Virus record (IMG/VR): IMGVR_UViG_3300032242_000818
Span: 64,001 to 128,000 of that record
Source: a virus
Reading direction: 5' to 3' (one strand)
DNA: 64,000 nt
The stretch's first letter is position 1. Each line of letters opens with the position of its first letter. The notes beneath the pieces are model-generated. The model was not told the DNA's origin. It worked only from the letters and a program-made list of their open reading frames with translations, and ran no database searches. This document shows, in pieces, positions 890-26,099 of this stretch. The translations under genes and the position numbers were made by a program.

Positions 890-896
890 TATTTAG
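890..896 (-). promoter_or_regulatory. T4-type late promoter (CTAAATA)
   Basis: TAAATA core about 25 nt upstream of the ATG at 864; the same motif precedes structural genes. Confidence 0.5.
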
Positions 897-1588
897 GTCA
901 GTCTATTATACTTGCGATCCCATTTACCTATCTGGTCTATGATCTTACGAGTGGCTTGATTGTTTCTTAAATCATAGTTAAATGTTTTTAAGAAATAGTG
1001 AAGTGTAGAAGAATCTCGTTTCTTTAAGTAACGATTCAACAGGATGTTGATATCTACATTTGGTCTGCGCATTTTATAGTCTAGATACACACAATGCGCA
1101 TATGCTTGTATCTCATCAAACTCAGAGAGATATGCTCTCTGTTCATCTTTCTTAGCGTTTCCTACTTTCTTATAGGGAACTACATAATTGCTCCATTCAT
1201 CACCACGTCTATCATATTGCATAAAATGAATCATCTCATGCATCAGAGTTTGTAGTAAACGAAATTTAAATGATGCCCAAGATTTATCGCTGAATGGGAA
1301 TATGTTATATTTTTGTGTATAGATTTGAAGAGTTATCTGGCGTTTTTCTGTGTCATACTCGCCACCGATAGCCACATAGTTTTCAGTCCACTTTGCTTTG
1401 GACTTTTCTTTGCGCCACTCAATTTTAGTGCGCCATTTTCTTACGTAATTTGATAACCCTATTGGATTGTTTTTATAAGAATCTAGATCCACCCATACTT
1501 TTGATGGAATGAGTTTTGCTCTGAATGGACGCTCATAGAAATTGAGTAAGTCCAGCCAGTCGTAAGTTGCGTTCTCTAGGAATTTCAT
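893..1588 (-). CDS. Putative zincin-type metallopeptidase
   Basis: HEMIH (HExxH) motif followed by EIQAYA. Confidence 0.55.
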   Translation of the reverse strand: MKFLENATYDWLDLLNFYERPFRAKLIPSKVWVDLDSYKNNPIGLSNYVRKWRTKIEWRKEKSKAKWTENYVAIGGEYDTEKRQITLQIYTQKYNIFPFSDKSWASFKFRLLQTLMHEMIHFMQYDRRGDEWSNYVVPYKKVGNAKKDEQRAYLSEFDEIQAYAHCVYLDYKMRRPNVDINILLNRYLKKRDSSTLHYFLKTFNYDLRNNQATRKIIDQIGKWDRKYNRLT

Positions 1589-1608: not shown

Positions 1609-2217
1609 TTAACTAAATTGCTTCTCCAAAAATGCAAGAACCTTCCCCTGCTCCTCTAAGTTAGTATTTGCAAACTCAGTAATATATGGCATAAGGTCAA
1701 AATTAGACATCAAGTTACTATATTTAGTTTCTCTTCCACGTAGGAATTGCTCGGACTGATCGGATCCACGATCTCGATATCTTTGTTCTAGGATATCCTT
1801 TGGAGCCTTTAAAAATACCACTTCTAGTTGGGTGTTCGGGAGACACATACAGAACTCTAGGAATGATTGGTTAAAAACCCTATCTCCCTCGAAAAGGATA
1901 TTACAGTTGTGGGAAGCGACCCATTCTTGAAGAGGTGGTTGAACAGCCATAGAAAGTCGATCGGTTCCAGCAAAGGTTTCGCCCTCGTCATATTTACCGA
2001 GGATGTATAGATCTCGTTCTGTATTATAAGAGGCATTTACTAATTTAGCAGGAGAAACTTCTAGCCAAGTTTTATCTTCCATAAACTTACGGAACAAAGT
2101 AGTCTTGCCAGTTCCAGGAGAACCACCAACTGCGATAATCTTTCTGGTCTTCATAGGATTAGTTACCCTTTCTACATTAATAGTGTCAACTACACCTACG
2201 TTCTCATTAAATGCCAT
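1609..2217 (-). CDS. P-loop kinase, candidate 5-hydroxymethylpyrimidine-DNA kinase
   Basis: Walker A GGSPGTGKTT, LGKY..GETFAGTDRLS and FEGDR motifs; near an amino acid:DNA transferase. Start placed at ATG 2217 after a GAGG SD. Confidence 0.7.
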   Translation of the reverse strand: MAFNENVGVVDTINVERVTNPMKTRKIIAVGGSPGTGKTTLFRKFMEDKTWLEVSPAKLVNASYNTERDLYILGKYDEGETFAGTDRLSMAVQPPLQEWVASHNCNILFEGDRVFNQSFLEFCMCLPNTQLEVVFLKAPKDILEQRYRDRGSDQSEQFLRGRETKYSNLMSNFDLMPYITEFANTNLEEQGKVLAFLEKQFS

Positions 2218-2623
2218 TTCTAATTTCCTCAATCATTTTAATCAGTTCTTCTTTACTAAAAACCCAAACACGTCCACGAAAAGAATGTGTATCAGTATTC
2301 TGATCAGTTCTCTTTGTAAAGGTCATCTTGTTAGTAACTTCTTCTGAAGCATACTTTGATAGATTACGTTTAATCTCAGTAGCATAATCTACATTACTTT
2401 CACGTAGTTTCATAAGTTCAAACTCTTGAACTCGATGTTCAACAGTCAACTCATTTAGTGAGTAACGATCTAAAATCATTTCAACTGGTGGGCGGACAGC
2501 AATAGTTGCACCAGTGGTATTCATAGTTATAGTATTACCAGTAGTATTTGAAACTGCAATATTATTCATATCTTCCCAGATAGCATTAGTAAGCCCAGTC
2601 ATTTGTCCTTTAGTCACAGCCAT
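2207..2623 (-). CDS. Hypothetical protein
   Basis: 138-aa ORF overlapping both neighbours. Confidence 0.6.
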   Translation of the reverse strand: MAVTKGQMTGLTNAIWEDMNNIAVSNTTGNTITMNTTGATIAVRPPVEMILDRYSLNELTVEHRVQEFELMKLRESNVDYATEIKRNLSKYASEEVTNKMTFTKRTDQNTDTHSFRGRVWVFSKEELIKMIEEIRNGI

Positions 2624-3639
2624 TAAAAATTCTCCAATCCAATTAAAACAGGTTCTTCATCATCAAACATCCACTCCAAGTTTTCTATTTTACCTGAACT
2701 TAGGAAAGAAGAAAACTTTTCTTTATCAATTCCTCTTTTGTGATCAAGACGAAAGTCAATAGTCTCTTCACGTGATTGCCAAAGAACATCCCAATCAATA
2801 CCATACCAACCATCGTTTTCTGCTTTAATAATCTCTTCTGCCTGACGATCTAAGTAGTAACCAAGATAACGACCATGATGTTCTCTAAAGATTTTCTTAA
2901 AAGAACATAAGCAGGTTTCCATTGTAAAGAAGTCTACTTGCGTTTCCAAATCTGGGAATCTATCTTTGGTTTCGGTGAGAATATATCTGGCTTCTGACTC
3001 AAGATTCGTATACTCGCTACTAGTGAGTTTTCTATCCATATCGTCGTGTCTGCCGAGGGCGCAAAGTAATCCATTACGATGAGAACGAGAGCCATCAAAA
3101 TCATCCAGCATGAGACTAGTAGGGCTGATGCGAATACCAGCGGTATGCTTAAGATGCTGAAGGTAAAACCAAGTGGAATAACGACCAAACTTATGCAGCC
3201 CAGACTTAACGCTTTCCCACAGATTATCAAAGTTGACTTCCTCATTATCTCCATAAAATCTTTCCAATCTTTCTCGTTGAGATCTGCCACCAATGAACTG
3301 TTGATATGAAGCAAACATGGCAGGTAGATGCCCCTTGTTCCACTTTGTATCAGTTTGGTAGCGTAATCGTTTATAGTTTGTTGCGTTCCACTGCGTAATG
3401 CGATCAACTGTTGCTAATTCAAAATCAGGAAACTCATTCATCAATACCCATGCAGTTGGTAATTGATAAGTGTTGCCGTATAGCCAAGCGAGCCAAAGAC
3501 GTTGTTCATCATTATGCTCGTAACGCTTATTGAGATAGTTCGTGCACCAAACAGCTGGGTCACAATCATCATACTTTAATGACCATGCATACCAGCGGAT
3601 GAACGCTTCTCTATTATTTTGCGGAAGTCTGTAATCCAT
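2623..3639 (-). CDS. Amino acid:DNA transferase (aGPT-Pplase2/AADT family, HhH-glycosylase-like fold)
   Basis: DCDP, FGRYSTWFYLQ, ETCLCSFKK and YLGYYLDRQ motifs typical of this family. Confidence 0.8.
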   Translation of the reverse strand: MDYRLPQNNREAFIRWYAWSLKYDDCDPAVWCTNYLNKRYEHNDEQRLWLAWLYGNTYQLPTAWVLMNEFPDFELATVDRITQWNATNYKRLRYQTDTKWNKGHLPAMFASYQQFIGGRSQRERLERFYGDNEEVNFDNLWESVKSGLHKFGRYSTWFYLQHLKHTAGIRISPTSLMLDDFDGSRSHRNGLLCALGRHDDMDRKLTSSEYTNLESEARYILTETKDRFPDLETQVDFFTMETCLCSFKKIFREHHGRYLGYYLDRQAEEIIKAENDGWYGIDWDVLWQSREETIDFRLDHKRGIDKEKFSSFLSSGKIENLEWMFDDEEPVLIGLENF

Positions 3640-3952
3640 CTAGATGTTCAAATTCCATTTTTAATTCATTAATTAACATATTTAATTGCTTGATTGCAGT
3701 TTTCTCTTCACGAATTTCTCTTGCTGCTTTATTCTGATCATCAAAACATACGCAACAATATCCACGAACATCGTTTTTGCGTTTCCTTGTGCTTTGAGAT
3801 TTTAAATAAAATGCGCTTAGTGGTTTATATACCCTACAGCATTTACACCAAGATACTGCTCTTGATTTTGTTCCATCAAGATTAGTTACCCATGCATCTT
3901 CAGCAATTTTCCTCGTAACAACTGCTAAATTTTCTTTTCTTAAGTGTGTCAT
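3614..3952 (-). CDS. Small Zn-finger protein resembling the N-terminus of HNH/EndoVII-type homing endonucleases
   Basis: CKCCRVYKPLSAFY...GYCCVC; no nuclease domain follows. Confidence 0.5.
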   Translation of the reverse strand: MTHLRKENLAVVTRKIAEDAWVTNLDGTKSRAVSWCKCCRVYKPLSAFYLKSQSTRKRKNDVRGYCCVCFDDQNKAAREIREEKTAIKQLNMLINELKMEFEHLDGLQTSAK

Positions 3953-3971: not shown

Positions 3972-4000
3972 ATTTTACTATAAAAATGAATGAAAGTCAA
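3972..4000 (-). promoter_or_regulatory. sigma70-type promoter
   Basis: TTGACT-17 bp-TAAAAT upstream of the ATG at 3952. Confidence 0.6.
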
Positions 4001-4532
4001 GTTGTTTTTGATTCTCTGCAAGACTGAATAAGGTTACGCAACCACCCTTACCCTTGCGATTAACAGCCTTATTGATAGTTGTATCAGAGTAATCGTAGTC
4101 AGCATCTGCATAAGTATCTCCACCTATACGAAAGATAGATAACTGACACCCACTCTTTTGAGCACCCCAAAACTTAAATCCAAGTCGTTCATAGAAACCA
4201 ACTGCCGTCTTCTCGGATGATACTCTAAAGTAAAGAGCACCATTAGATCTTGCACGCTTCAATGAATCTTCACATAATAATCTTGCAGAACCTTTGCCTC
4301 TATGTTTTGAAAATGTATGTAAGAGTTGTAAGTTTGCTACGTGAGGTTTGGTCTTTGAGATTGTAGTAATTATGGCAGCAGTTAATTCATTACCATCATA
4401 TACGCCAATACAGCAATTCCATTGATCCTGCATATCTGCTTTGGCAACAAATGTTTTGGCAAAGTTATCTTCTTTGTCTTCAGTAATTGCTGCTATAAAA
4501 TCAGCACGTGAACACTTAGACAACTTCAACAT
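3978..4532 (-). CDS. GNAT-family acyltransferase
   Basis: HRGKGSA acetyl-CoA motif and AVGFYERLGF motif. Confidence 0.85.
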   Translation of the reverse strand: MLKLSKCSRADFIAAITEDKEDNFAKTFVAKADMQDQWNCCIGVYDGNELTAAIITTISKTKPHVANLQLLHTFSKHRGKGSARLLCEDSLKRARSNGALYFRVSSEKTAVGFYERLGFKFWGAQKSGCQLSIFRIGGDTYADADYDYSDTTINKAVNRKGKGGCVTLFSLAENQKQLDFHSFL

Positions 4533-5400
4533 ATGTTCTTACTTTTTCTCCGCGATCTTCTGGATGTTTAGTTTTCTCCCAGCCAATAAACTGAAGTAGA
4601 TCCCACTGCATTGGAGGGAATGTATAATGATTGTTTGAAATTAATTCTAATACACTTTGACCATCATTCAATGCAGCATCAAGGAAGTCTTGAACGAAAC
4701 GAAAACAAGATTCAAGTTCAGTACGATCCATTGTACCACGAAATAATCTAAACTCTACAGTATCAATATGCTTCAGTGCGTACATATTAATAGCGTAGCG
4801 GAATGGGCGACCCATTGATACTCCATCTTTACCAGCAGCGTGCATCTTAATGAATGAATCAAAGTCAGTTGCTTTGTTGATAATGTTATCTGACATATAG
4901 TCAGGCATTGCTCGACCACCATCAAACTTCAAATACATCTTTGCGCCTTTGGCACCTTTCATTTGGTTATGCTCAAAGTAACCATAGACGTGCTCAATAG
5001 TATCTGTTTGGTTTTCTTTAATGTATTTTGTTAATCGTTTCAATGCTTCGATATCGTCCCTAAGACCAGGAACTCTACAATGAATATGAGTGTGAGCGGT
5101 AACACCCACAGTGGGAGGAGTGCCATTATCATCAAACATTTTATAAAGTTCAAAATATCTGTCAACCTGTTCTTCCCAAGTCTTAGTAGGTTTTGTATTA
5201 ATCTCACCACCAACTGGTGGAGTTTCTCCAAGTGGGTCAGCGCAGACATATTTGTATGGTTCTCTTAGGTTAATAATATCTCGTTCTGAGTATTCCCAAG
5301 AACCAAGATGCTCTGGAATGGAAAAAGAGCGAGGAACATCACCCCACTCTATTTCCATACCGTATGTATATTTGTCAGTTGGATATGGTTTCAGTTTCAT
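4516..5400 (-). CDS. Amidoligase (COOH-NH2 ligase, Amidoligase_2-like)
   Basis: YGMEIEW, GEINT, HTHIH, RYAIN and TVEFRLF motifs. Confidence 0.75.
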   Translation of the reverse strand: MKLKPYPTDKYTYGMEIEWGDVPRSFSIPEHLGSWEYSERDIINLREPYKYVCADPLGETPPVGGEINTKPTKTWEEQVDRYFELYKMFDDNGTPPTVGVTAHTHIHCRVPGLRDDIEALKRLTKYIKENQTDTIEHVYGYFEHNQMKGAKGAKMYLKFDGGRAMPDYMSDNIINKATDFDSFIKMHAAGKDGVSMGRPFRYAINMYALKHIDTVEFRLFRGTMDRTELESCFRFVQDFLDAALNDGQSVLELISNNHYTFPPMQWDLLQFIGWEKTKHPEDRGEKVRTYVEVV

Positions 5401-6082
5401 AATCTACTTTCTGTAAATCTGGTTTGTTAGTTTTAACAAGATTAACATTCATTGTCATATTTGAATCAAATGTCAAGTAAGTGTTCATTGGCACTTCAAC
5501 TGCTGGAATTCTAATACCTGCACGTTTAGGAATATCCGCAGTAGAAGTAATTATAACTCCATTCACTAAAGAAGTCAAATATAATGGACGCTTACCATTT
5601 CTGAAAACAACAAGATGTTTATCATTAACTGATAACTCACAAACTGCCATAGATGCATCTGGATATTCACCAAGAGCATTTGCAGAATGTAAAACAAGTT
5701 CTGAATCATTCTTTGTTTCACAAGGGTAATGAAATAACTTACCCCAATTCTCTGGGAGTTCTTGAGTGATAACTCCGTTGTGAACAATAGAATGTGTTTC
5801 GCTTGCTATCGGCTGGTTATACAATAAATCGCTAGTACTATATCTACAGTGACCAATAAGGTAAAGATTACCGTCATCATTAACCATCTCCTCTAAATTA
5901 TCTAGATGAACAAATTTATCCGCAGGAACTGATTCCTTAAATGTAGTAATCCTACCATCTTTGATATAAGATAAACCAGTTGCATGCATTCCTCTAATCT
6001 TGGACTCGAGGAACACTTTACGGATAGATTCAAAATCCTTGGCAGTAGGATTCTGAATCAAAGCACCAATAACACTACACAT
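5375..6082 (-). CDS. Class II (Ntn) glutamine amidotransferase
   Basis: N-terminal Cys2, RGMHATG, GHCRYST, NQP, HNG, NDSE and RPL motifs. Confidence 0.85.
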   Translation of the reverse strand: MCSVIGALIQNPTAKDFESIRKVFLESKIRGMHATGLSYIKDGRITTFKESVPADKFVHLDNLEEMVNDDGNLYLIGHCRYSTSDLLYNQPIASETHSIVHNGVITQELPENWGKLFHYPCETKNDSELVLHSANALGEYPDASMAVCELSVNDKHLVVFRNGKRPLYLTSLVNGVIITSTADIPKRAGIRIPAVEVPMNTYLTFDSNMTMNVNLVKTNKPDLQKVDYETETISN

Positions 6083-6678
6083 TATTTTAACTCCAAAAAT
6101 GACATTGTGTTTTCTATACCAATACTTCCTTTAAAGAATGTATTAAAAGATAATGAAATTCTATTTTCAGAAGATAGATTAGTATCTACCGAATGTGTTA
6201 GATCAGAAGGAAACAAAATTAACATACCTTTTTTTACATTTAAATTAAATTTTTTACAATTGAATTGATTAACTATTTTTGTATTATAAAATAAATTATT
6301 TTCTTTTTTCTTGTACAATTTTATGCTTTCTGGGATGTCAGGACTAATATAATAAACTCCACTGATTATACTATTATCGTGTGTATGCATATGGTGTGAT
6401 GTGTTTGGTTTATTAACATTTATCCATGATTGTGTTACTACTAATGATACATCTGTTTCTGGACATAAAACATTTTGAACATATTCATCTAACTTTTCAG
6501 AAATCTTTTCAGATATCTCAGGCATACTATTTAAAACATATGTGTTTAAACTGTAAGAATTCCCAGAATAATGATTAAACTCAGTTTCTAATGAATTAAC
6601 AAATTCTAATTCATTATCGTTTAATAATCCAACATCTTCAATATAAAGTGGAATTGGAAATAATGGCAAGAGAGTCAT
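6082..6678 (-). CDS. 2OG-Fe(II) oxygenase (TIGR02466-like)
   Basis: SWIN, HTH, SGVYY, LFPSDLTHSV and RISLSFN motifs. Confidence 0.8.
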   Translation of the reverse strand: MTLLPLFPIPLYIEDVGLLNDNELEFVNSLETEFNHYSGNSYSLNTYVLNSMPEISEKISEKLDEYVQNVLCPETDVSLVVTQSWINVNKPNTSHHMHTHDNSIISGVYYISPDIPESIKLYKKKENNLFYNTKIVNQFNCKKFNLNVKKGMLILFPSDLTHSVDTNLSSENRISLSFNTFFKGSIGIENTMSFLELK

Positions 6679-7991
6679 TAAAAGAAACTTTCTAGTGAAG
6701 AAGCATTAGATTCTGGATGATACTTATGAAGTTCTTCAGTACCAAGTTTAGATTCTACGTAATCATACCATTCTTGAGTAGTCCACATACCCTCAGAAAC
6801 ACCATTCCATAGTGGTTTCCATAAAGGATGTTCTTTATTCAATCTACGAGATTCAACAAAGTTATAACGGCATTCTTCATACTCATGAGAACCAAGATCT
6901 AGCATCTTCTCACGGAAATAACATACCAATGATACACGCTCAGAACCTTCGTCACATTTGATTTCAGTATTACCGTGCATAACTTCATGATTATTAATTA
7001 AGAGCAAGTCACCTGGACGAACATTAACTGCAACACGATACTCAGGGGCAATCAAATATCCTCCAGTATACTTACCATCATTAGATAATGTTAGCAAGTT
7101 AGATAGACCTGAATTCAAATCACCTGCATCATAATGAGCAGCAGTTCTAAATGTTTTATTGACAGTGATAGTTGTAAATGGAGTTCCAGGAACAAGGAAT
7201 CTTGGATCTAGTTTTGATGCTGCTTCCATTTGTGCAGCAAATCGTTCTGGTAAAAGATTCTTAAAACCTTCAGAAAGATTTTGAAGGAATGGATATGACA
7301 TTTGAAACTTCTCAAAATTGTCACGGGTATAAGAAGTTGCACGACCATAAGGGATACGTGGGTAACGATCAAACCAACCAGCAATACCTGAGTTAACAGC
7401 ACTACCATAGGTAGTTGTGCTAACCATCTTCATGACTTCTTCAGTAGCCTTTGCTCGTTCTTCGCGTGTAAAAGTTTTAATTGAATCAAGCCATGCTTCA
7501 AAATCAAACTTACCACGGAAACGAGAGATGACCCATACATTATTTTTACCATCACCACCAGCCATCTTCTTATCTACTTCACGTGGATATTTGGCACGAA
7601 CAGTATCGATGACATCTTCATTATCAAGAGCAGAGTTACGATTCTTAATGAGGGCACGCATCATCTCATCTTGATAGTTTGTTACCCATTCTCTTCCTTC
7701 AGTTGTGGCAAGAATGCCATCTTTGATACCAGAAGCAAGTCCTCGATTCTCTGTTCGAATAGCTGCTTCTCTAAGTCCGACATATGCTGCATCTTGCTGC
7801 TCTTTACTAAAATAATTTTTACGAAACTTCAATACGATTCGTTTTTCTGAGATTGGATCTTCACCAAATTGTGGTGGCATATAAACATCAGTATCTTCTT
7901 CAATAAGAAAATCATAATTTGATTCGTCAACAAACTTACCAAGAAGATGTTCACAATTATGTTTTTGTTCAGCTACAATTATCTTAACCAT
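6678..7991 (-). CDS. TET/JBP-family 5-methylpyrimidine dioxygenase
   Basis: GWFDRYPR, TITVN...AAHYD (HxD), MHGNT and RVSLVCYFRE (Rx5-aromatic) motifs. Confidence 0.85.
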   Translation of the reverse strand: MVKIIVAEQKHNCEHLLGKFVDESNYDFLIEEDTDVYMPPQFGEDPISEKRIVLKFRKNYFSKEQQDAAYVGLREAAIRTENRGLASGIKDGILATTEGREWVTNYQDEMMRALIKNRNSALDNEDVIDTVRAKYPREVDKKMAGGDGKNNVWVISRFRGKFDFEAWLDSIKTFTREERAKATEEVMKMVSTTTYGSAVNSGIAGWFDRYPRIPYGRATSYTRDNFEKFQMSYPFLQNLSEGFKNLLPERFAAQMEAASKLDPRFLVPGTPFTTITVNKTFRTAAHYDAGDLNSGLSNLLTLSNDGKYTGGYLIAPEYRVAVNVRPGDLLLINNHEVMHGNTEIKCDEGSERVSLVCYFREKMLDLGSHEYEECRYNFVESRRLNKEHPLWKPLWNGVSEGMWTTQEWYDYVESKLGTEELHKYHPESNASSLESFF

Positions 7992-11009: not shown

Positions 11010-11558
11010 CTATGGGTTGCTCTTTGAATGTGGAACATCAAACACAAATGTGATTCTAGTACAGTCTCCAATGTTTTCTGTTCCGTGTAGTAGTTTATTA
11101 TTGAACCAAAGTAAAGTTCCAGGTTCAACATCATAATGTTCATCACCTACAAAATATCTATATCTTCCTTGGATGGATAGATGATAACGATCTCTTGTAA
11201 GGTAATATTTTCCTTCATCAATATGGCGTCCAACATATCCTCCAACTGGAAGAGATAAGAATCCACAACGACTAAATTTTTTAAAGTTTCTTTTAAGGAA
11301 ACCAACTATCTCTGTGTGATGTTTGATTGCTTCAGTTGGTATACATATCTCACTATCGCCAACAAAGTCTTCTAATTTTTCTACGCCACCAACAACAAGC
11401 TGAAGATTGCCAACTGGTATGTCGTCATATCCTCTATCGATAAGTGATTGAGCACCTTCAATACTTTTCTGAGCCATCCAATCTTCAGGATGTTCTTTTA
11501 GTTGTTTCAATATCTTTGAAACATTAATCCCAGTTTTAATGATACGAATATTATCCAA
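11010..11558 (-). CDS. Aspartyl/asparaginyl beta-hydroxylase-like 2OG-Fe(II) oxygenase
   Basis: HID...RYHL...WFNNKLLHG...RITFVFD. Confidence 0.75.
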   Translation of the reverse strand: MDNIRIIKTGINVSKILKQLKEHPEDWMAQKSIEGAQSLIDRGYDDIPVGNLQLVVGGVEKLEDFVGDSEICIPTEAIKHHTEIVGFLKRNFKKFSRCGFLSLPVGGYVGRHIDEGKYYLTRDRYHLSIQGRYRYFVGDEHYDVEPGTLLWFNNKLLHGTENIGDCTRITFVFDVPHSKSNP

Positions 11559-14037
11559 AGAAATCCTCTAATGAACTTTGTTCTGATGTATTCCAACCCA
11601 GTGGCTCAATAACAATCTGAAGAGCATCGAGAAATACTTTCTCAAATTGTTTATCATAATCTATGTAGGAATGCAATTCAAACTCTGGTGGCAACTCTTG
11701 ACTAAACGCAATGACATCTTCTTGAAATGGATTTGGTTTACGAACATAGACAAACTTAATCTTATCACCATCACGGATTGGTTGATACTTTTTATCAAGA
11801 CCCATCTTCTTGGTGTAGTGATTAAACAATAATGCGCCACGAACATGAATCGGAGTTCCCTTAGAATAGATAGGTGAACCAGCATACTGTTTCATACCAT
11901 TTACGCCACGAGGGAATGCGATATCTTGAACAGGTAGTTTGTCAAACTCTTTACGGAAATCCATAATATAATTCTGAAGATCTGACTGATTACCTTTAAG
12001 AATAACCTCAATCGAGTCACGCAACTTATCACGAATGACTGCAGGTGTTGAAGACTTGACCATCTCAAGACCCATAACTTTAATCTTAGGTTTCGCATAT
12101 TGAACACCTTCAGAGTTATGAACATTAAGAATATATCTTTTCTTGGCAGTCCAGATACCTTTATCAGCAAGAACTTCTCGCTTCATCTGCATCTTTTGAC
12201 TATACGCATTCATATAGTCAGCGAGTTCTTGATAGCCTGTATCAATAAATGGTTGAAAGATACCCTCACAAACCTTATCCATAAACTTAATCTTTTGTTC
12301 ATCAGTTTGGCCAGCACATGCTTGCTCAACTAGAGTTTCAAGAGTAAGATAGATTGAGTCAGTATCAATCGCAACTACATAATCTTTATCCTCAGTCTTG
12401 AGAGTTTTGTTCATGAACGCATTTAACTTGTTAGCCATCCAGCGAATAGATAACTGACCAGAAGTAGTAATACCTTCAGCCATACGGATATCGAAGTATC
12501 GGAAATACTGATTACCCATGGCACCATAAGCAGAGTTCAAAGCAATCTTCATAGCCATCTGAAGATTATTCAAACGAGAAATATCTTTGAGCAAGTGTTT
12601 TTGAGACTTATCTTTCTCATACTCTTGTTGAACTTTCAGCATTTGTTTCTTAAATTTGCTTCGGTCAACATACATCTTTTCCATTAACTCAGGCATGAAC
12701 CCTTTGAACTCTTTTGTATAAGTCCAACCATTTGCAGTCAAAGCAAGATCTCGTTGCTTAACATAAGTTGTATCAATTTCTTGATTCAAAAGTTTGTCAA
12801 CAGTCACGCTAATCTTTTCAGAAGTCAAAGTCTCAGGACTGATATTATACTGCATAATCAAATGCGGATATAATGAGTTCAAATCAAATGAAGCCATCCA
12901 TTTATGAAGACCAATGATTGGATCTTTAACGTACGCACCCTCGAACTGAGCATCTTTACCAGAGTGTGACTTCGCAGGAACAACAATACCCTTCTTGCGT
13001 AAATGGTTATAGATGATTGTATCCCACATACGAACCTGCGAATAAACATCTTCGAAATTAATCTTAGCGTTATATGCCATGGTTAAATGCAGTTCAATCA
13101 AACGCATCTTATCTTCTAGTTTGTCAACCAACTCTACGTCATGAATATTATAATCTACGAATTGTTGCCAGTGATTAGTATAGAAATCCTTGAAAGATTC
13201 TCCTGGATTAACCTTCTTCTTGTCACCAAGTTCTTGTTCAGCGATATAATCAAGGCGATACGATTCTTGTTTAGAATATGTATATTTCTTATACAGTTCA
13301 AGATAATCCAACTGAGCGATACCAATAATGTCATAGTGAATCTCTTCATTACCTTTAATGAAAGTCTTGCGTTCATTGACATAACCCCATGGACTCAATT
13401 TATTAGATTCACCATCACCAAGTTCACGTTCAATCCTACGGATAAGATACGGCATGTCAAAGAAGTCAGTATTCCAACCAGTGATAACATCGGGATGACT
13501 CTTAGTCCAAAACTCTAGAAATTGAATAAGAAGATTATGTTCATCTTTACAGTTAACATAGATTACATCTTCGCGTGGATTGACGTATGCTTTGCTACCA
13601 AAAGTAATAATTCGTTTAGTAGAAAGTTCCTTAACAGTGATTAATAGGATCTCTTCATTGGCAGACTTGATATCAGGGAAACCATTCTCAGTTGAAGTCT
13701 CAATGTCAATGGTAAATACTTTAATCTGCTCCATATCCCAATTGATATCATGGGAATAATTGTCGCTGATGTATTGGTATGCGTAGTTTGAGTTTCCATA
13801 AACATCAAACCCCTGAACACCCTCATATCGTTTAATGAAGTCGCGTGTTTCTTTAATAGTCCCAGGTTGGACTTCATCAACGAATGTTCCCTCCAGTGTC
13901 TTCCACTTGGAGGGTTTCTTTGAAGTTACGTAAAGGGTAGGACTGAAGTCTAGTTTACGTTGGTAGCGTTTACCATTCTCCACACCACGAATGAAAATTC
14001 GATCTCCAATCGGATGCACCGAAGTATAAAATTCCAT
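11551..14037 (-). CDS. gp43: Family B DNA polymerase
   Basis: DIET exonuclease motif, SFDLNSLYP, KIALNSAYG, DTDS; C-terminal clamp tail SLEDFF. Confidence 0.98.
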   Translation of the reverse strand: MEFYTSVHPIGDRIFIRGVENGKRYQRKLDFSPTLYVTSKKPSKWKTLEGTFVDEVQPGTIKETRDFIKRYEGVQGFDVYGNSNYAYQYISDNYSHDINWDMEQIKVFTIDIETSTENGFPDIKSANEEILLITVKELSTKRIITFGSKAYVNPREDVIYVNCKDEHNLLIQFLEFWTKSHPDVITGWNTDFFDMPYLIRRIERELGDGESNKLSPWGYVNERKTFIKGNEEIHYDIIGIAQLDYLELYKKYTYSKQESYRLDYIAEQELGDKKKVNPGESFKDFYTNHWQQFVDYNIHDVELVDKLEDKMRLIELHLTMAYNAKINFEDVYSQVRMWDTIIYNHLRKKGIVVPAKSHSGKDAQFEGAYVKDPIIGLHKWMASFDLNSLYPHLIMQYNISPETLTSEKISVTVDKLLNQEIDTTYVKQRDLALTANGWTYTKEFKGFMPELMEKMYVDRSKFKKQMLKVQQEYEKDKSQKHLLKDISRLNNLQMAMKIALNSAYGAMGNQYFRYFDIRMAEGITTSGQLSIRWMANKLNAFMNKTLKTEDKDYVVAIDTDSIYLTLETLVEQACAGQTDEQKIKFMDKVCEGIFQPFIDTGYQELADYMNAYSQKMQMKREVLADKGIWTAKKRYILNVHNSEGVQYAKPKIKVMGLEMVKSSTPAVIRDKLRDSIEVILKGNQSDLQNYIMDFRKEFDKLPVQDIAFPRGVNGMKQYAGSPIYSKGTPIHVRGALLFNHYTKKMGLDKKYQPIRDGDKIKFVYVRKPNPFQEDVIAFSQELPPEFELHSYIDYDKQFEKVFLDALQIVIEPLGWNTSEQSSLEDFFG

Positions 14038-24608: not shown

Positions 24609-26099
24609 TTATTTAATATAATCAAATTTAACAACAATGTTATTTTGTTCGAGCAATACCTTATGATCAATATAACTCGCTACTTGGATATCTTCCAAGT
24701 AACTATTATACTTCATTAATTCTTGCTCCACAAGTTTTTCACCATAGGTTTTTGTTAAGTTCTGCAGGATATATTCACGATCAAACATATCCATACCTGC
24801 CATAACCTGAGCATAACTATACGCATTAAACAAATTGTATTCATTCAAGAAATATGTCTTTGATGGTAAAGTCTTTTTCCAAATATCTAAATGCTCTTTA
24901 TTAAAATCAGTAACAGTCATAATCTCTGGAATTGTTTTCCAGAAATCGCTATCTTTTCTTTTACCAAGATAATGTATCTGAATGAAATCAACAATGTTAT
25001 CAAAACATTCAGTAAATCTTTTATTATATTGTTTAGTAATTTTATCTCGTTCAACTTCCCAAACTGGTAACATTCTAACGAAACCAAATGCTTGCATAAT
25101 CGAGTTTCCGATACTAGATGCTTCTAAAGGCTCAACAAATGAAGCAGATAATCCAATACTTACGCAATTGTTTATCCAAAATTGGTCAACTCTTCCAGCA
25201 TCAAACTTAATATCCTTTGCGACATTAACTTTCTCAGAATAGTGAGATTGAATCTCATCGTGGGCTTGAGTTGCGTTAATAAAATCATCACAGAAAACAT
25301 ACCCATTACCATATCTTCCCTGAGTTGGAATTCTCCAATTCCATCCAGAGGATAATGCTTTAGATAATGTATATGGTTTAAGTTCAGTAATATTTTCAGT
25401 AGGAAATGCCAAAGCATGATTCATTGGTAGGTACTTTTTGTATGATACCCACTTAGAACCTAATTTTGTTGATATGATCCTTTTGAATCCACTACTATCA
25501 ATAAAGAAATCTGCGTTATGCAAAGTTCCGCTTTCACCAACTAGAGCAGAAACATCTCCATTATCAGAAACCATAACATCAGTTACAGTTGTCTTTACAA
25601 AATTAATACTTGCTTCTTCACAAACTTTGTGTAGAAACTCGTTCAACTTGAATGTATTAAATTGATATTGATTAACTGAATTAAGACCAAATGATGTATT
25701 AATTAAATTGGTTTCATTAAGAACATCTTCAGTCTTAATGTTATTTCCAATTAAGGTTTTAATAAAAGTTAATTTCTCTGATAAATCATCAGCAGAAGTA
25801 TATTCACTATAAAATGGATCAACGATTGCATGGAAATAACTTTTTCCATCACCATTCCAATTTTCAAACTTGATACCTTTCTTTAAGGTACCATGAGTTT
25901 CTCTAACTAATCGTTGCATTGAAATGCCACAATATTCTGCGAATATTCTCCAATGCTCAGTTGAGCCTTCACCAACTCCAATAATACCGATTGAATCTGA
26001 TTCAATTACAGTAACATTACAAAGAGGAAATGACTTTTTAATTATAAGTGCTGAAACTAACCCAGCAGTTCCAGCACCGAGAACAATAATGTTTTCCAT
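24609..26099 (-). CDS. Flavin-dependent (tryptophan) halogenase family protein
   Basis: GAGTAG, GVGEGS, LKKGIKFENW, WNWRIP (WxWxIP), FVEPLEASSI. Confidence 0.85.
   Translation of the reverse strand: MENIIVLGAGTAGLVSALIIKKSFPLCNVTVIESDSIGIIGVGEGSTEHWRIFAEYCGISMQRLVRETHGTLKKGIKFENWNGDGKSYFHAIVDPFYSEYTSADDLSEKLTFIKTLIGNNIKTEDVLNETNLINTSFGLNSVNQYQFNTFKLNEFLHKVCEEASINFVKTTVTDVMVSDNGDVSALVGESGTLHNADFFIDSSGFKRIISTKLGSKWVSYKKYLPMNHALAFPTENITELKPYTLSKALSSGWNWRIPTQGRYGNGYVFCDDFINATQAHDEIQSHYSEKVNVAKDIKFDAGRVDQFWINNCVSIGLSASFVEPLEASSIGNSIMQAFGFVRMLPVWEVERDKITKQYNKRFTECFDNIVDFIQIHYLGKRKDSDFWKTIPEIMTVTDFNKEHLDIWKKTLPSKTYFLNEYNLFNAYSYAQVMAGMDMFDREYILQNLTKTYGEKLVEQELMKYNSYLEDIQVASYIDHKVLLEQNNIVVKFDYIK

Follow-up and report, generated by a model that had tools for sequence, protein, structure and literature searches.

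We analyzed a 64,000-nucleotide stretch of viral DNA (positions 64,001 to 128,000 of IMG/VR record IMGVR_UViG_3300032242_000818, hereafter "the window"), in which three overlapping genes on the minus strand code for a glutamine amidotransferase (GATase) of class II (Ntn), a divergent amidoligase of the glutamine synthetase (GS) fold, and a GNAT-family N-acetyltransferase. These genes in all likelihood serve the hypermodification of thymidine in phage DNA, and they probably do not act as a single unit: the GATase is rather likely to be the partner of a nearby amino acid:DNA transferase (AADT), and the amidoligase and GNAT appear to form a separate, exchangeable tailoring pair. As an overall scheme, we tentatively propose that GATase and AADT make 5-aminomethyl-dU, that the amidoligase acylates the amine, and that the GNAT caps the product.

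Composition and conservation of the cassette

The source genome is complete (164,717 bp, with direct terminal repeats) and belongs to an uncultured freshwater T4-like phage; the GC content of the window is ~37%. The genes of the cassette are tightly packed on the minus strand, and DnaB, UvsX and DNA polymerase genes come after TET/JBP. The enzymes considered here are:

5375-6082 (-): class II (Ntn) GATase, 235 aa, stand-alone (Pfam GATase_6, Met-Cys start, invariant catalytic residues); proposed glutaminase partner of the AADT
4516-5400 (-): GS-fold carboxylate-amine ligase, 294 aa, a divergent Amidoligase_2 of the clade here named AMDL-I (from its fold, the Pfam matches of its relatives and, for the clade, the tree)
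3978-4532 (-): GNAT N-acetyltransferase, 184 aa, pI 9.0; KGKGGC motif conserved, LDFxxFL tail at the C-terminus (Pfam, acetyl-CoA loop)
2623-3639 (-): AADT (aGPT-Pplase2; PF18724, 86.2 bits; E241 and C245 conserved)
1609-2232 (-): P-loop nucleotide kinase 3, candidate 5-hydroxymethyl-dU (5-hmdU) DNA kinase (PF18751, 28.5 bits vs. a cut-off of 27; Walker A GSPGTGKT)
6678-7991 (-): TET/JBP 5-methylpyrimidine dioxygenase with an extra N-terminal domain and a polymerase-like C-terminal tail (PF12851, 87.1 bits; H286-x-D288, H339 and R352 conserved)

The genes of a 5-HMUDK + AADT-type cluster, i.e., the kinase, the AADT and a 5-hmdU source (TET/JBP), are present. The three focal reading frames overlap (26 nt for GATase/amidoligase, 17 nt for amidoligase/GNAT) and keep their catalytic motifs, as reported in the initial annotation of this DNA, but its placement of them between TET and AADT has to be refined, as the frames 6082-6678 and 3614-3952 intervene, both being absent from most relatives.

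A first set of loci comprised 80 viral contigs with amidoligases 61-91% identical to that of the window, and all 80 keep the order TET-GATase-amidoligase-GNAT-AADT-kinase wherever the contig reaches, with the kinase kept at the end of the cassette among relatives. Amino acid identities of 60-90% over 80 viral contigs exclude chance open reading frames (ORFs). Scanning with a distant amidoligase clade provided a second set of 80 further contigs, in which the amidoligase is found with AADT and kinase, the 5-hmdU source being either TET or a thymidylate-synthase-like (ThyA-like) hydroxymethylase. Overall, the cassette occurs in >150 viral contigs. When dereplicated at 50% identity, AADT and kinase were each found within 7 kb in 8 of the 10 evaluable clusters, and about half of the amidoligase clusters at this level lack a GATase. 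The assignment of the three genes to DNA base tailoring is thus well supported, since they accompany TET, AADT and kinase in every relative with enough flanking sequence, and since fusions join amidoligases of this family to DNA-modification domains. Similarly, the co-occurrence survey suggested in the initial annotation did not find the triad mostly without AADT or TET.

The complete genome holds neither a C5-methyltransferase nor a ThyA-like gene that we could find, and the TET substrate is therefore probably thymine. Residues 1-190 of this TET make up a conserved N-terminal domain of ~190 aa. No ParB_N gene was found in this genome, and ParB-less members of the GATase/AADT-linked TET clade were inactive in published assays (PMC13229309). 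For the AADT, comparison with PDB sequences gave no usable match; its E241 and C245 are ≥95% conserved, and the AADT Cys and a neighboring Glu are essential (PMC8989533).

The amidotransferase, the amidoligase and their probable partners

The GATase matches Pfam GATase_6 (37.4 bits, cut-off 27), and its profile is nearest to the glutaminase domains of PurF and GlmS. Its N-terminus reads MCSV, with the catalytic Cys right after the initiator Met, and an MC start is found in 132 of 132 relatives. Residues C2, R30-G31, H78-x-R80-Y81, N102-G103 and D126 do not vary among 48 relatives, and they fall on catalytic positions when aligned to PurF and GlmS (PurF motifs HxRYxT, HNG and SDSE), with R80 and D126 as predicted glutamine-binding residues and N102-G103 as predicted oxyanion hole. 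The protein stands alone in the window, and relatives are fused to AADT (7), amidoligase (2) or GNAT (2).

The earlier view of the three genes as one functional triad was not supported by the comparative data. In sister T4-like phages, GATase (61-68%), AADT (74-80%), TET (55-79%) and kinase (71-80%) remain similar to those of the window, whereas the amidoligase is only 29-32% identical, and a phosphatase takes the place of the GNAT. Over 116 loci, the pairwise identity of GATase follows that of AADT (Spearman 0.88) and not that of the amidoligase (0.25). A search for longer forms retrieved seven proteins in which an N-terminal GATase is fused to a C-terminal AADT; each of them begins with MCG, and the window AADT is 36-40% identical to their AADT halves. 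At three of these fusion loci there are two kinases plus a ThyA-like gene; a six-frame search of ~10 kb around them detected no amidoligase, GNAT or phosphatase. The gene order GATase>AADT also appears in five divergent loci, and two contigs are ordered kinase>AADT>GATase~GNAT fusion, with no amidoligase between.

Several observations weigh against the pairing of GATase with AADT. The fusions are promiscuous, as there are also two GATase(N)-amidoligase(C) proteins (P0209 and P0280, a GNAT coming next after one of them) and two GATase-GNAT proteins, so that fusion may partly reflect adjacency and not ammonia channeling. The window GATase is translationally coupled to the amidoligase and not to the AADT, in the widespread LUZ24-type clusters a homologous GATase goes with amidoligases but no AADT is present, and some loci hold neither GATase nor FAD oxidoreductase. 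Moreover, the AADT tree does not set ammonia users apart, with ViI-type serine transferases nested in the same large clade. We considered AADT phylogeny as a readout of the nucleophile and rejected it, these serine transferases being on a long branch inside the GATase-coupled clade.

Against Pfam Amidoligase_2 (PF12224), the window amidoligase scores 16.7 bits, below the gathering cut-off of 22, and because of this its relatives are all listed as hypothetical proteins without Pfam domains. Among 65 relatives, 45 match Amidoligase_2 (best E 3.7e-13), and the window protein is, judging from its sequence, part of a divergent subclade and not a canonical member. Its AlphaFold2 model (pLDDT 97.5) points to the same superfamily: the best 19 solved structural matches (VIA, Z 10.2-6.3) are all YbdK, glutamate-cysteine ligase (GCL), GS, GmaS, PafA or Dop, with YbdK at the top (Z 10.2, rmsd 5.0, 223 aligned). 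Foldseek against PDB gave weak matches (E about 2e-3), all GS-like, whereas VIA-align gave a clear result, and 43 phage proteins in BFVD match the fold, many of them named amidoligase; the amidoligase profile found no usable match among PDB sequences. The motifs ExE, GGE, HxH, R and ExR are invariant or nearly so (conserved E16, E18, E66, H105, H107, R201, E216 and R218), and these acidic, His and Arg residues are predicted to act as metal and ATP ligands in ATP-dependent amide formation.

The amidoligase family is viral almost throughout, and its genes nearly always neighbor an AADT and a 5-hmdU DNA kinase. It counts 300 representatives among 1.84 billion proteins, and in 185,579 prokaryote genomes it occupies 8 loci only, the best of them with AADT or kinases. 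The profile of one amidoligase alignment (A4) found no relative among genome contigs, the single distant amidoligases P0194 and P0165 used as queries found no related loci, and alignments A1 and A2 were too diverse for pattern scans. The amidoligase tree has two deep clades, AMDL-I (that of the window) and AMDL-II. GNAT always comes after AMDL-I, and AMDL-II always precedes, or is fused to, a low molecular weight (LMW) phosphatase with an intact CX5RS motif in 70 of 72 cases; some loci carry AMDL-I and AMDL-II in tandem. This strict pairing of each ligase clade with one partner fits a partner that processes what the ligase attached. According to lineage, amidoligases are fused to 5-hmdU DNA kinases (HMUD1/HMUD2), GNAT, GATase, LMW phosphatase (LMWPc), TET-associated glycosyltransferase (TAGT) or Nmad1, the kinase fusions occurring in at least four lineages.

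Within loci L089-L168 (e.g., L105, L128 and L165), AMDL-II and LMW phosphatase replace AMDL-I and GNAT in otherwise orthologous cassettes, and some AMDL-II loci add TAGT or GT1-like glycosyltransferases, a second amidoligase, an R2K ATP-grasp or ParB. Among cultured phages, amidoligases of this family were found only in phage Simon, whose locus holds AADT, FAD oxidoreductase, amidoligase, phosphatase, kinase and a ThyA-like gene, and in one Vibrio phage. The latter homologue (Vibrio phage 2.275.O, MG592671, 6896-8008; 27.5% identity) adjoins QueF-like, QueC, Ntn amidohydrolase and GTP cyclohydrolase I genes. This neighborhood is a 7-deazaguanine DNA-modification cluster, and the preQ1 product also carries an aminomethyl group.

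The GNAT matches Acetyltransf_10 (PF13673; 44.5 bits, cut-off 23.6), with an acetyl-CoA loop (R78-G79-K-G81-S-A83) conserved among 59 sequences, and the solved GNATs closest to it by sequence are small-molecule and polyamine acetyltransferases. The parallel drawn earlier with the PaMx11 GNAT holds as an analogy only, since the window GNAT had no tblastn match in 50,697 phage records. It is the sole basic protein of the cassette set (pI 9.0); pI as a sign of DNA binding was rejected, as the kinase and AADT, both from DNA-acting families, are acidic. T4-family polymerases bind the gp45 clamp through their C-terminal tail, and a gp45 gene is present in this genome. A strict polymerase-like tail pattern was most frequent in polymerases (93%) and full-length TETs (88%), followed by GNATs (58%) and AADTs (36%). 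Its frequency was 0-1% for amidoligases, GATases and kinases, and 0.5% for the 854 other ORFs. In the window, TET ends in SSLESFF (6678-6701) and AADT in GLENF (2623-2643), to be compared with SSLEDFFG of the polymerase (11551-11574), and the GNAT tail (QLDFHSFL, 3978-4001) is a looser match. The tail and the pI, together with the kinase>AADT>GATase~GNAT contigs, suggest that the GNAT may act at DNA and on the AADT/GATase product.

A proposed pathway and its alternatives

The cassette would work on DNA after replication. TET/JBP would oxidize T in DNA to 5-hmdU, as expected from homology to tested enzymes (PMC8989533; PMC13229309), the P-loop kinase would convert it to 5-phosphomethyl-dU, and the AADT would displace the phosphate, again by homology to tested enzymes. 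The GATase would be the glutaminase partner of the AADT, the two being split where the GATase(N)-AADT(C) fusion enzymes have them in one chain, with glutamine-derived ammonia as the nucleophile and 5-aminomethyl-dU as the product of a single step. The idea, already in the initial annotation, that these genes supply an amine donor for the AADT fits the GATase best, although the likely donor is simply ammonia from glutamine. This step would replace the glycine-then-FAD-lyase route of PaMx11, and a search of the genome for a gp47-like FAD lyase found none, returning only a tryptophan-halogenase-family gene. The latter (24609-26099, minus strand; PF04820, E 1.3e-96) encodes a 496-aa flavin-dependent protein and adjoins the gp45 clamp gene.

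The amidoligase would then spend ATP to couple a free carboxylic acid to the amine on the base. Our guess for this acid, made from what the GS/GCL/GmaS/PafA superfamily does, is an amino acid such as glutamate. The GNAT would N-acetylate the appended residue, the acetylated atom being likewise a guess, and the pathway would end in a so far undescribed thymine of the amide type, neutral or capped. The main argument for acylation of an amine is one of parsimony. The AMDL-II and LMWPc module is found both in GATase-type frames and in AADT + FAD-oxidoreductase frames (e.g., phage Simon), and PaMx11, a frame of the second type, yields 5-aminomethyl-dU (PMC8989533); if the module has a common substrate, both frames should deliver a 5-aminomethyl amine.

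In PurF, ammonia from an N-terminal Ntn glutaminase displaces pyrophosphate. It is tempting to speculate, if with slightly more reserve than for the overall scheme, that the window encodes a split PurF-like amidotransferase operating on DNA, in which GATase and AADT swap the phosphate of 5-phosphomethyl-dU for a glutamine nitrogen, a GS-fold ligase builds an amide (e.g., gamma-glutamyl or aminoacyl) on the base within DNA, and a GNAT with a sliding-clamp-binding-like tail caps it.

The main rival, which corresponds to the amidation and N-acylation of a base-linked amino acid put forward in the initial annotation, is that the AADT appends an amino acid (e.g., glycine or serine), whose carboxylate is activated by the amidoligase and turned into a carboxamide with ammonia from the GATase, so that the negative charge is lost, the remaining amine being acetylated by the GNAT. 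In known pathways the appended carboxylate is always removed, either through decarboxylation or through oxidative cleavage (PMC8989533), and such a role would suit the overlap and adjacency of GATase and amidoligase in nearly all T4-like loci, the two GATase(N)-amidoligase(C) fusions, one of which has a GNAT after it, and the homologous GATase-amidoligase pairs that travel jointly in LUZ24-type phages. Yet GATase identity is kept while the amidoligase is swapped, the GATase occurs without any amidoligase in fusion loci and is missing from about half of the amidoligase clusters, and the same amidoligase-phosphatase module is present in FAD-oxidoreductase frames, where no carboxylate should remain. 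Because of the GATase-AADT co-variation, the GATase-AADT fusions and the amidoligase-free fusion loci, we rank this carboxamide route as a rival, and an unlikely one. It is more doubtful still that the amidoligase, alone or together with the GNAT, works away from DNA and produces a small, unusual amine (e.g., an amino-acid amide or N-acyl diamine) for transfer by the AADT. Such an activity would agree with the varied nucleophiles of AADTs, among them glycine, serine and putrescine (PMC8989533) and 1,3-diaminopropane (PMC13458397), with the lack on amidoligase and GATase of the clamp-type tail seen on TET, AADT and GNAT, and with the small-molecule and polyamine acetyltransferases nearest to the GNAT. 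However, the kinase, from a DNA-acting family, also lacks this tail, the GNAT is basic with a polymerase-like tail, and the amidoligase fusions in at least four lineages are to 5-hmdU DNA kinases, which act on DNA.

Two further readings are highly improbable. The triad might act on cell-wall or protein substrates and sit in the cassette by chance only, since LUZ24-type GATase and amidoligase homologues neighbor RimK-like and gamma-glutamyl cyclotransferase genes with no AADT, and cell-wall roles have been suggested (PMC10580990); against this, the position in the cassette is strictly conserved in >150 contigs, the fusions are to DNA-modification domains only, and the family is almost missing from cellular genomes. 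Even less credible is the third option of the initial annotation, the amidation of a TET-made 5-carboxy-pyrimidine, in which thymine would be over-oxidized to 5-carboxy-uracil and converted by GATase and amidoligase to 5-carboxamido-uracil. Stepwise oxidation to the carboxyl level is possible for TET (established for 5mC), and this substrate would suit a GS-like ligase with ammonia, but the kinase and AADT would be left without a role, amidoligases are equally present in TET-less loci with ThyA-like hydroxymethylase and kinases, and GATase-AADT fusions occur in TET-less loci. The preferred pathway, with its division of labor between a GATase that works with the AADT and a ligase that forms an exchangeable module with GNAT or phosphatase, is concrete and cheap to test. 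If it holds, 5-aminomethyl-dU should arise in one glutamine-dependent step, and amide-type bases should include at least two families that are new.

Adjacent genes and known systems

Three further reading frames lie within or beside the cassette:

2207-2623 (-): conserved 138-aa protein between AADT and kinase, present in 45 loci (no lead in Pfam, PHROG or Atlas)
6082-6678 (-): 2OG-FeII_Oxy_5 oxygenase (PF13759), itself a variable insert outside the core; a homologue occupies this slot in 5 of 80 relatives
3614-3952 (-): 112-aa variable ORF with weak endonuclease VII-like PHROG matches, found in few relatives and probably a mobile insert

After the kinase, in 55 loci, comes a basic 231-aa protein (893-1588, minus strand; pI 9.6). 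It matches SprT-like in Pfam weakly, its HExxH motif (M116-H117-E118-x-x-H121) is conserved throughout, and in other cassettes a clearer SprT-like gene adjoins TET. This protein may be a protease for DNA-protein crosslinks that might result from the covalent Cys-C6 mechanism of the AADT. Farther away, an Asp/Asn beta-hydroxylase-like cupin (11010-11558, minus strand; PF05118, E 1.9e-7), with DNA polymerase on one side and thioredoxin on the other, is conserved in 23 loci. When the window stretch was compared with phage records (tblastn), only a chance 66-nt match was obtained.

Hypermodifications protect phage DNA from restriction and CRISPR nucleases, and the pathways behind them provide enzymes for DNA labeling. 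The kinase/AADT pathways solved to date use decarboxylases, radical-SAM isomerases, FAD lyases and acetyltransferases. Closest in logic is the 5-acetylaminomethyl-dU pathway of PaMx11 (gp46 glycine:DNA transferase, gp47 FAD lyase, gp48 GNAT, gp49 kinase; PMC8989533, PMC11472151), which likewise goes from kinase to AADT, to an unmasked 5-aminomethyl amine, and to N-acylation by a GNAT. Its 5-hmdU is provided by a dUMP hydroxymethylase, whereas in the window it would come from TET/JBP acting on DNA; a predicted GATase stands where PaMx11 has the FAD lyase, with a putative ATP-dependent amidoligase added, and the window GNAT has no detectable relation to any cultured-phage GNAT.

Other systems share single elements with the window. 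PurF and GlmS have the same N-terminal Cys1 Ntn glutaminase with Arg, Asn-Gly and Asp at the same positions as the window GATase, and the GATase(N)-AADT(C) fusions have the domain order of PurF; in the window, however, the two halves are separate proteins, and ammonia would be accepted by a phosphomethyl group that a base within DNA carries. GS, GCL, GmaS and PafA share the fold of the amidoligase (Z 8.4-10.2) and its conserved acidic, His and Arg residues, but the window enzyme is minimal (294 aa) and <13% identical to them, and its presumed substrate is a modified base in DNA. The amidoligase/GAT-II clusters of LUZ24/phiEco32-type phages (Iyer et al., 2009) have a homologous Ntn GATase (24-30% identity) and amidoligase-fold proteins; these clusters include a RimK-like ATP-grasp and a gamma-glutamyl cyclotransferase and lack AADT, kinase and TET, whereas the window has neither of the first two genes and holds the other three.

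Cassettes of the same kind are already on record, both as metavirome contigs where amidoligase and glutaminotransferase genes accompany TET_JBP, 5-HMUDK and aGPT-Pplase2 (Lee et al., 2021, Fig. 2, sequences 22-25), and as ParB-linked 5mYOX neighborhoods (PNAS 2026, PMC13229309), from which this genome differs by having no ParB_N. GATases, kinases and AADTs have been listed beside phage T-dioxygenases (PMC13229309), and it is published, without an assigned function, that GATase and amidoligase occur alongside AADT, kinase and TET (Lee et al., 2021; PMC13229309). Searches of a literature library for amidoligase with thymidine hypermodification, or amidotransferase with 5-NmdU, retrieved only Lee et al. 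(2021), where no function is given. What the amidotransferase and amidoligase do is acknowledged there as a gap; both come up repeatedly across hundreds of uncultured phages. If the pathway proposed here is correct, its product would be an undescribed hypermodified thymine, and its ligase and GATase would be the first of the GS superfamily and of the glutamine amidotransferases, respectively, with a demonstrated action on DNA. Thus, while the cassette itself was already known, the probable partnership of GATase and AADT, the two amidoligase clades with their fixed partners (GNAT or LMW phosphatase), and the swap of these modules are new here.

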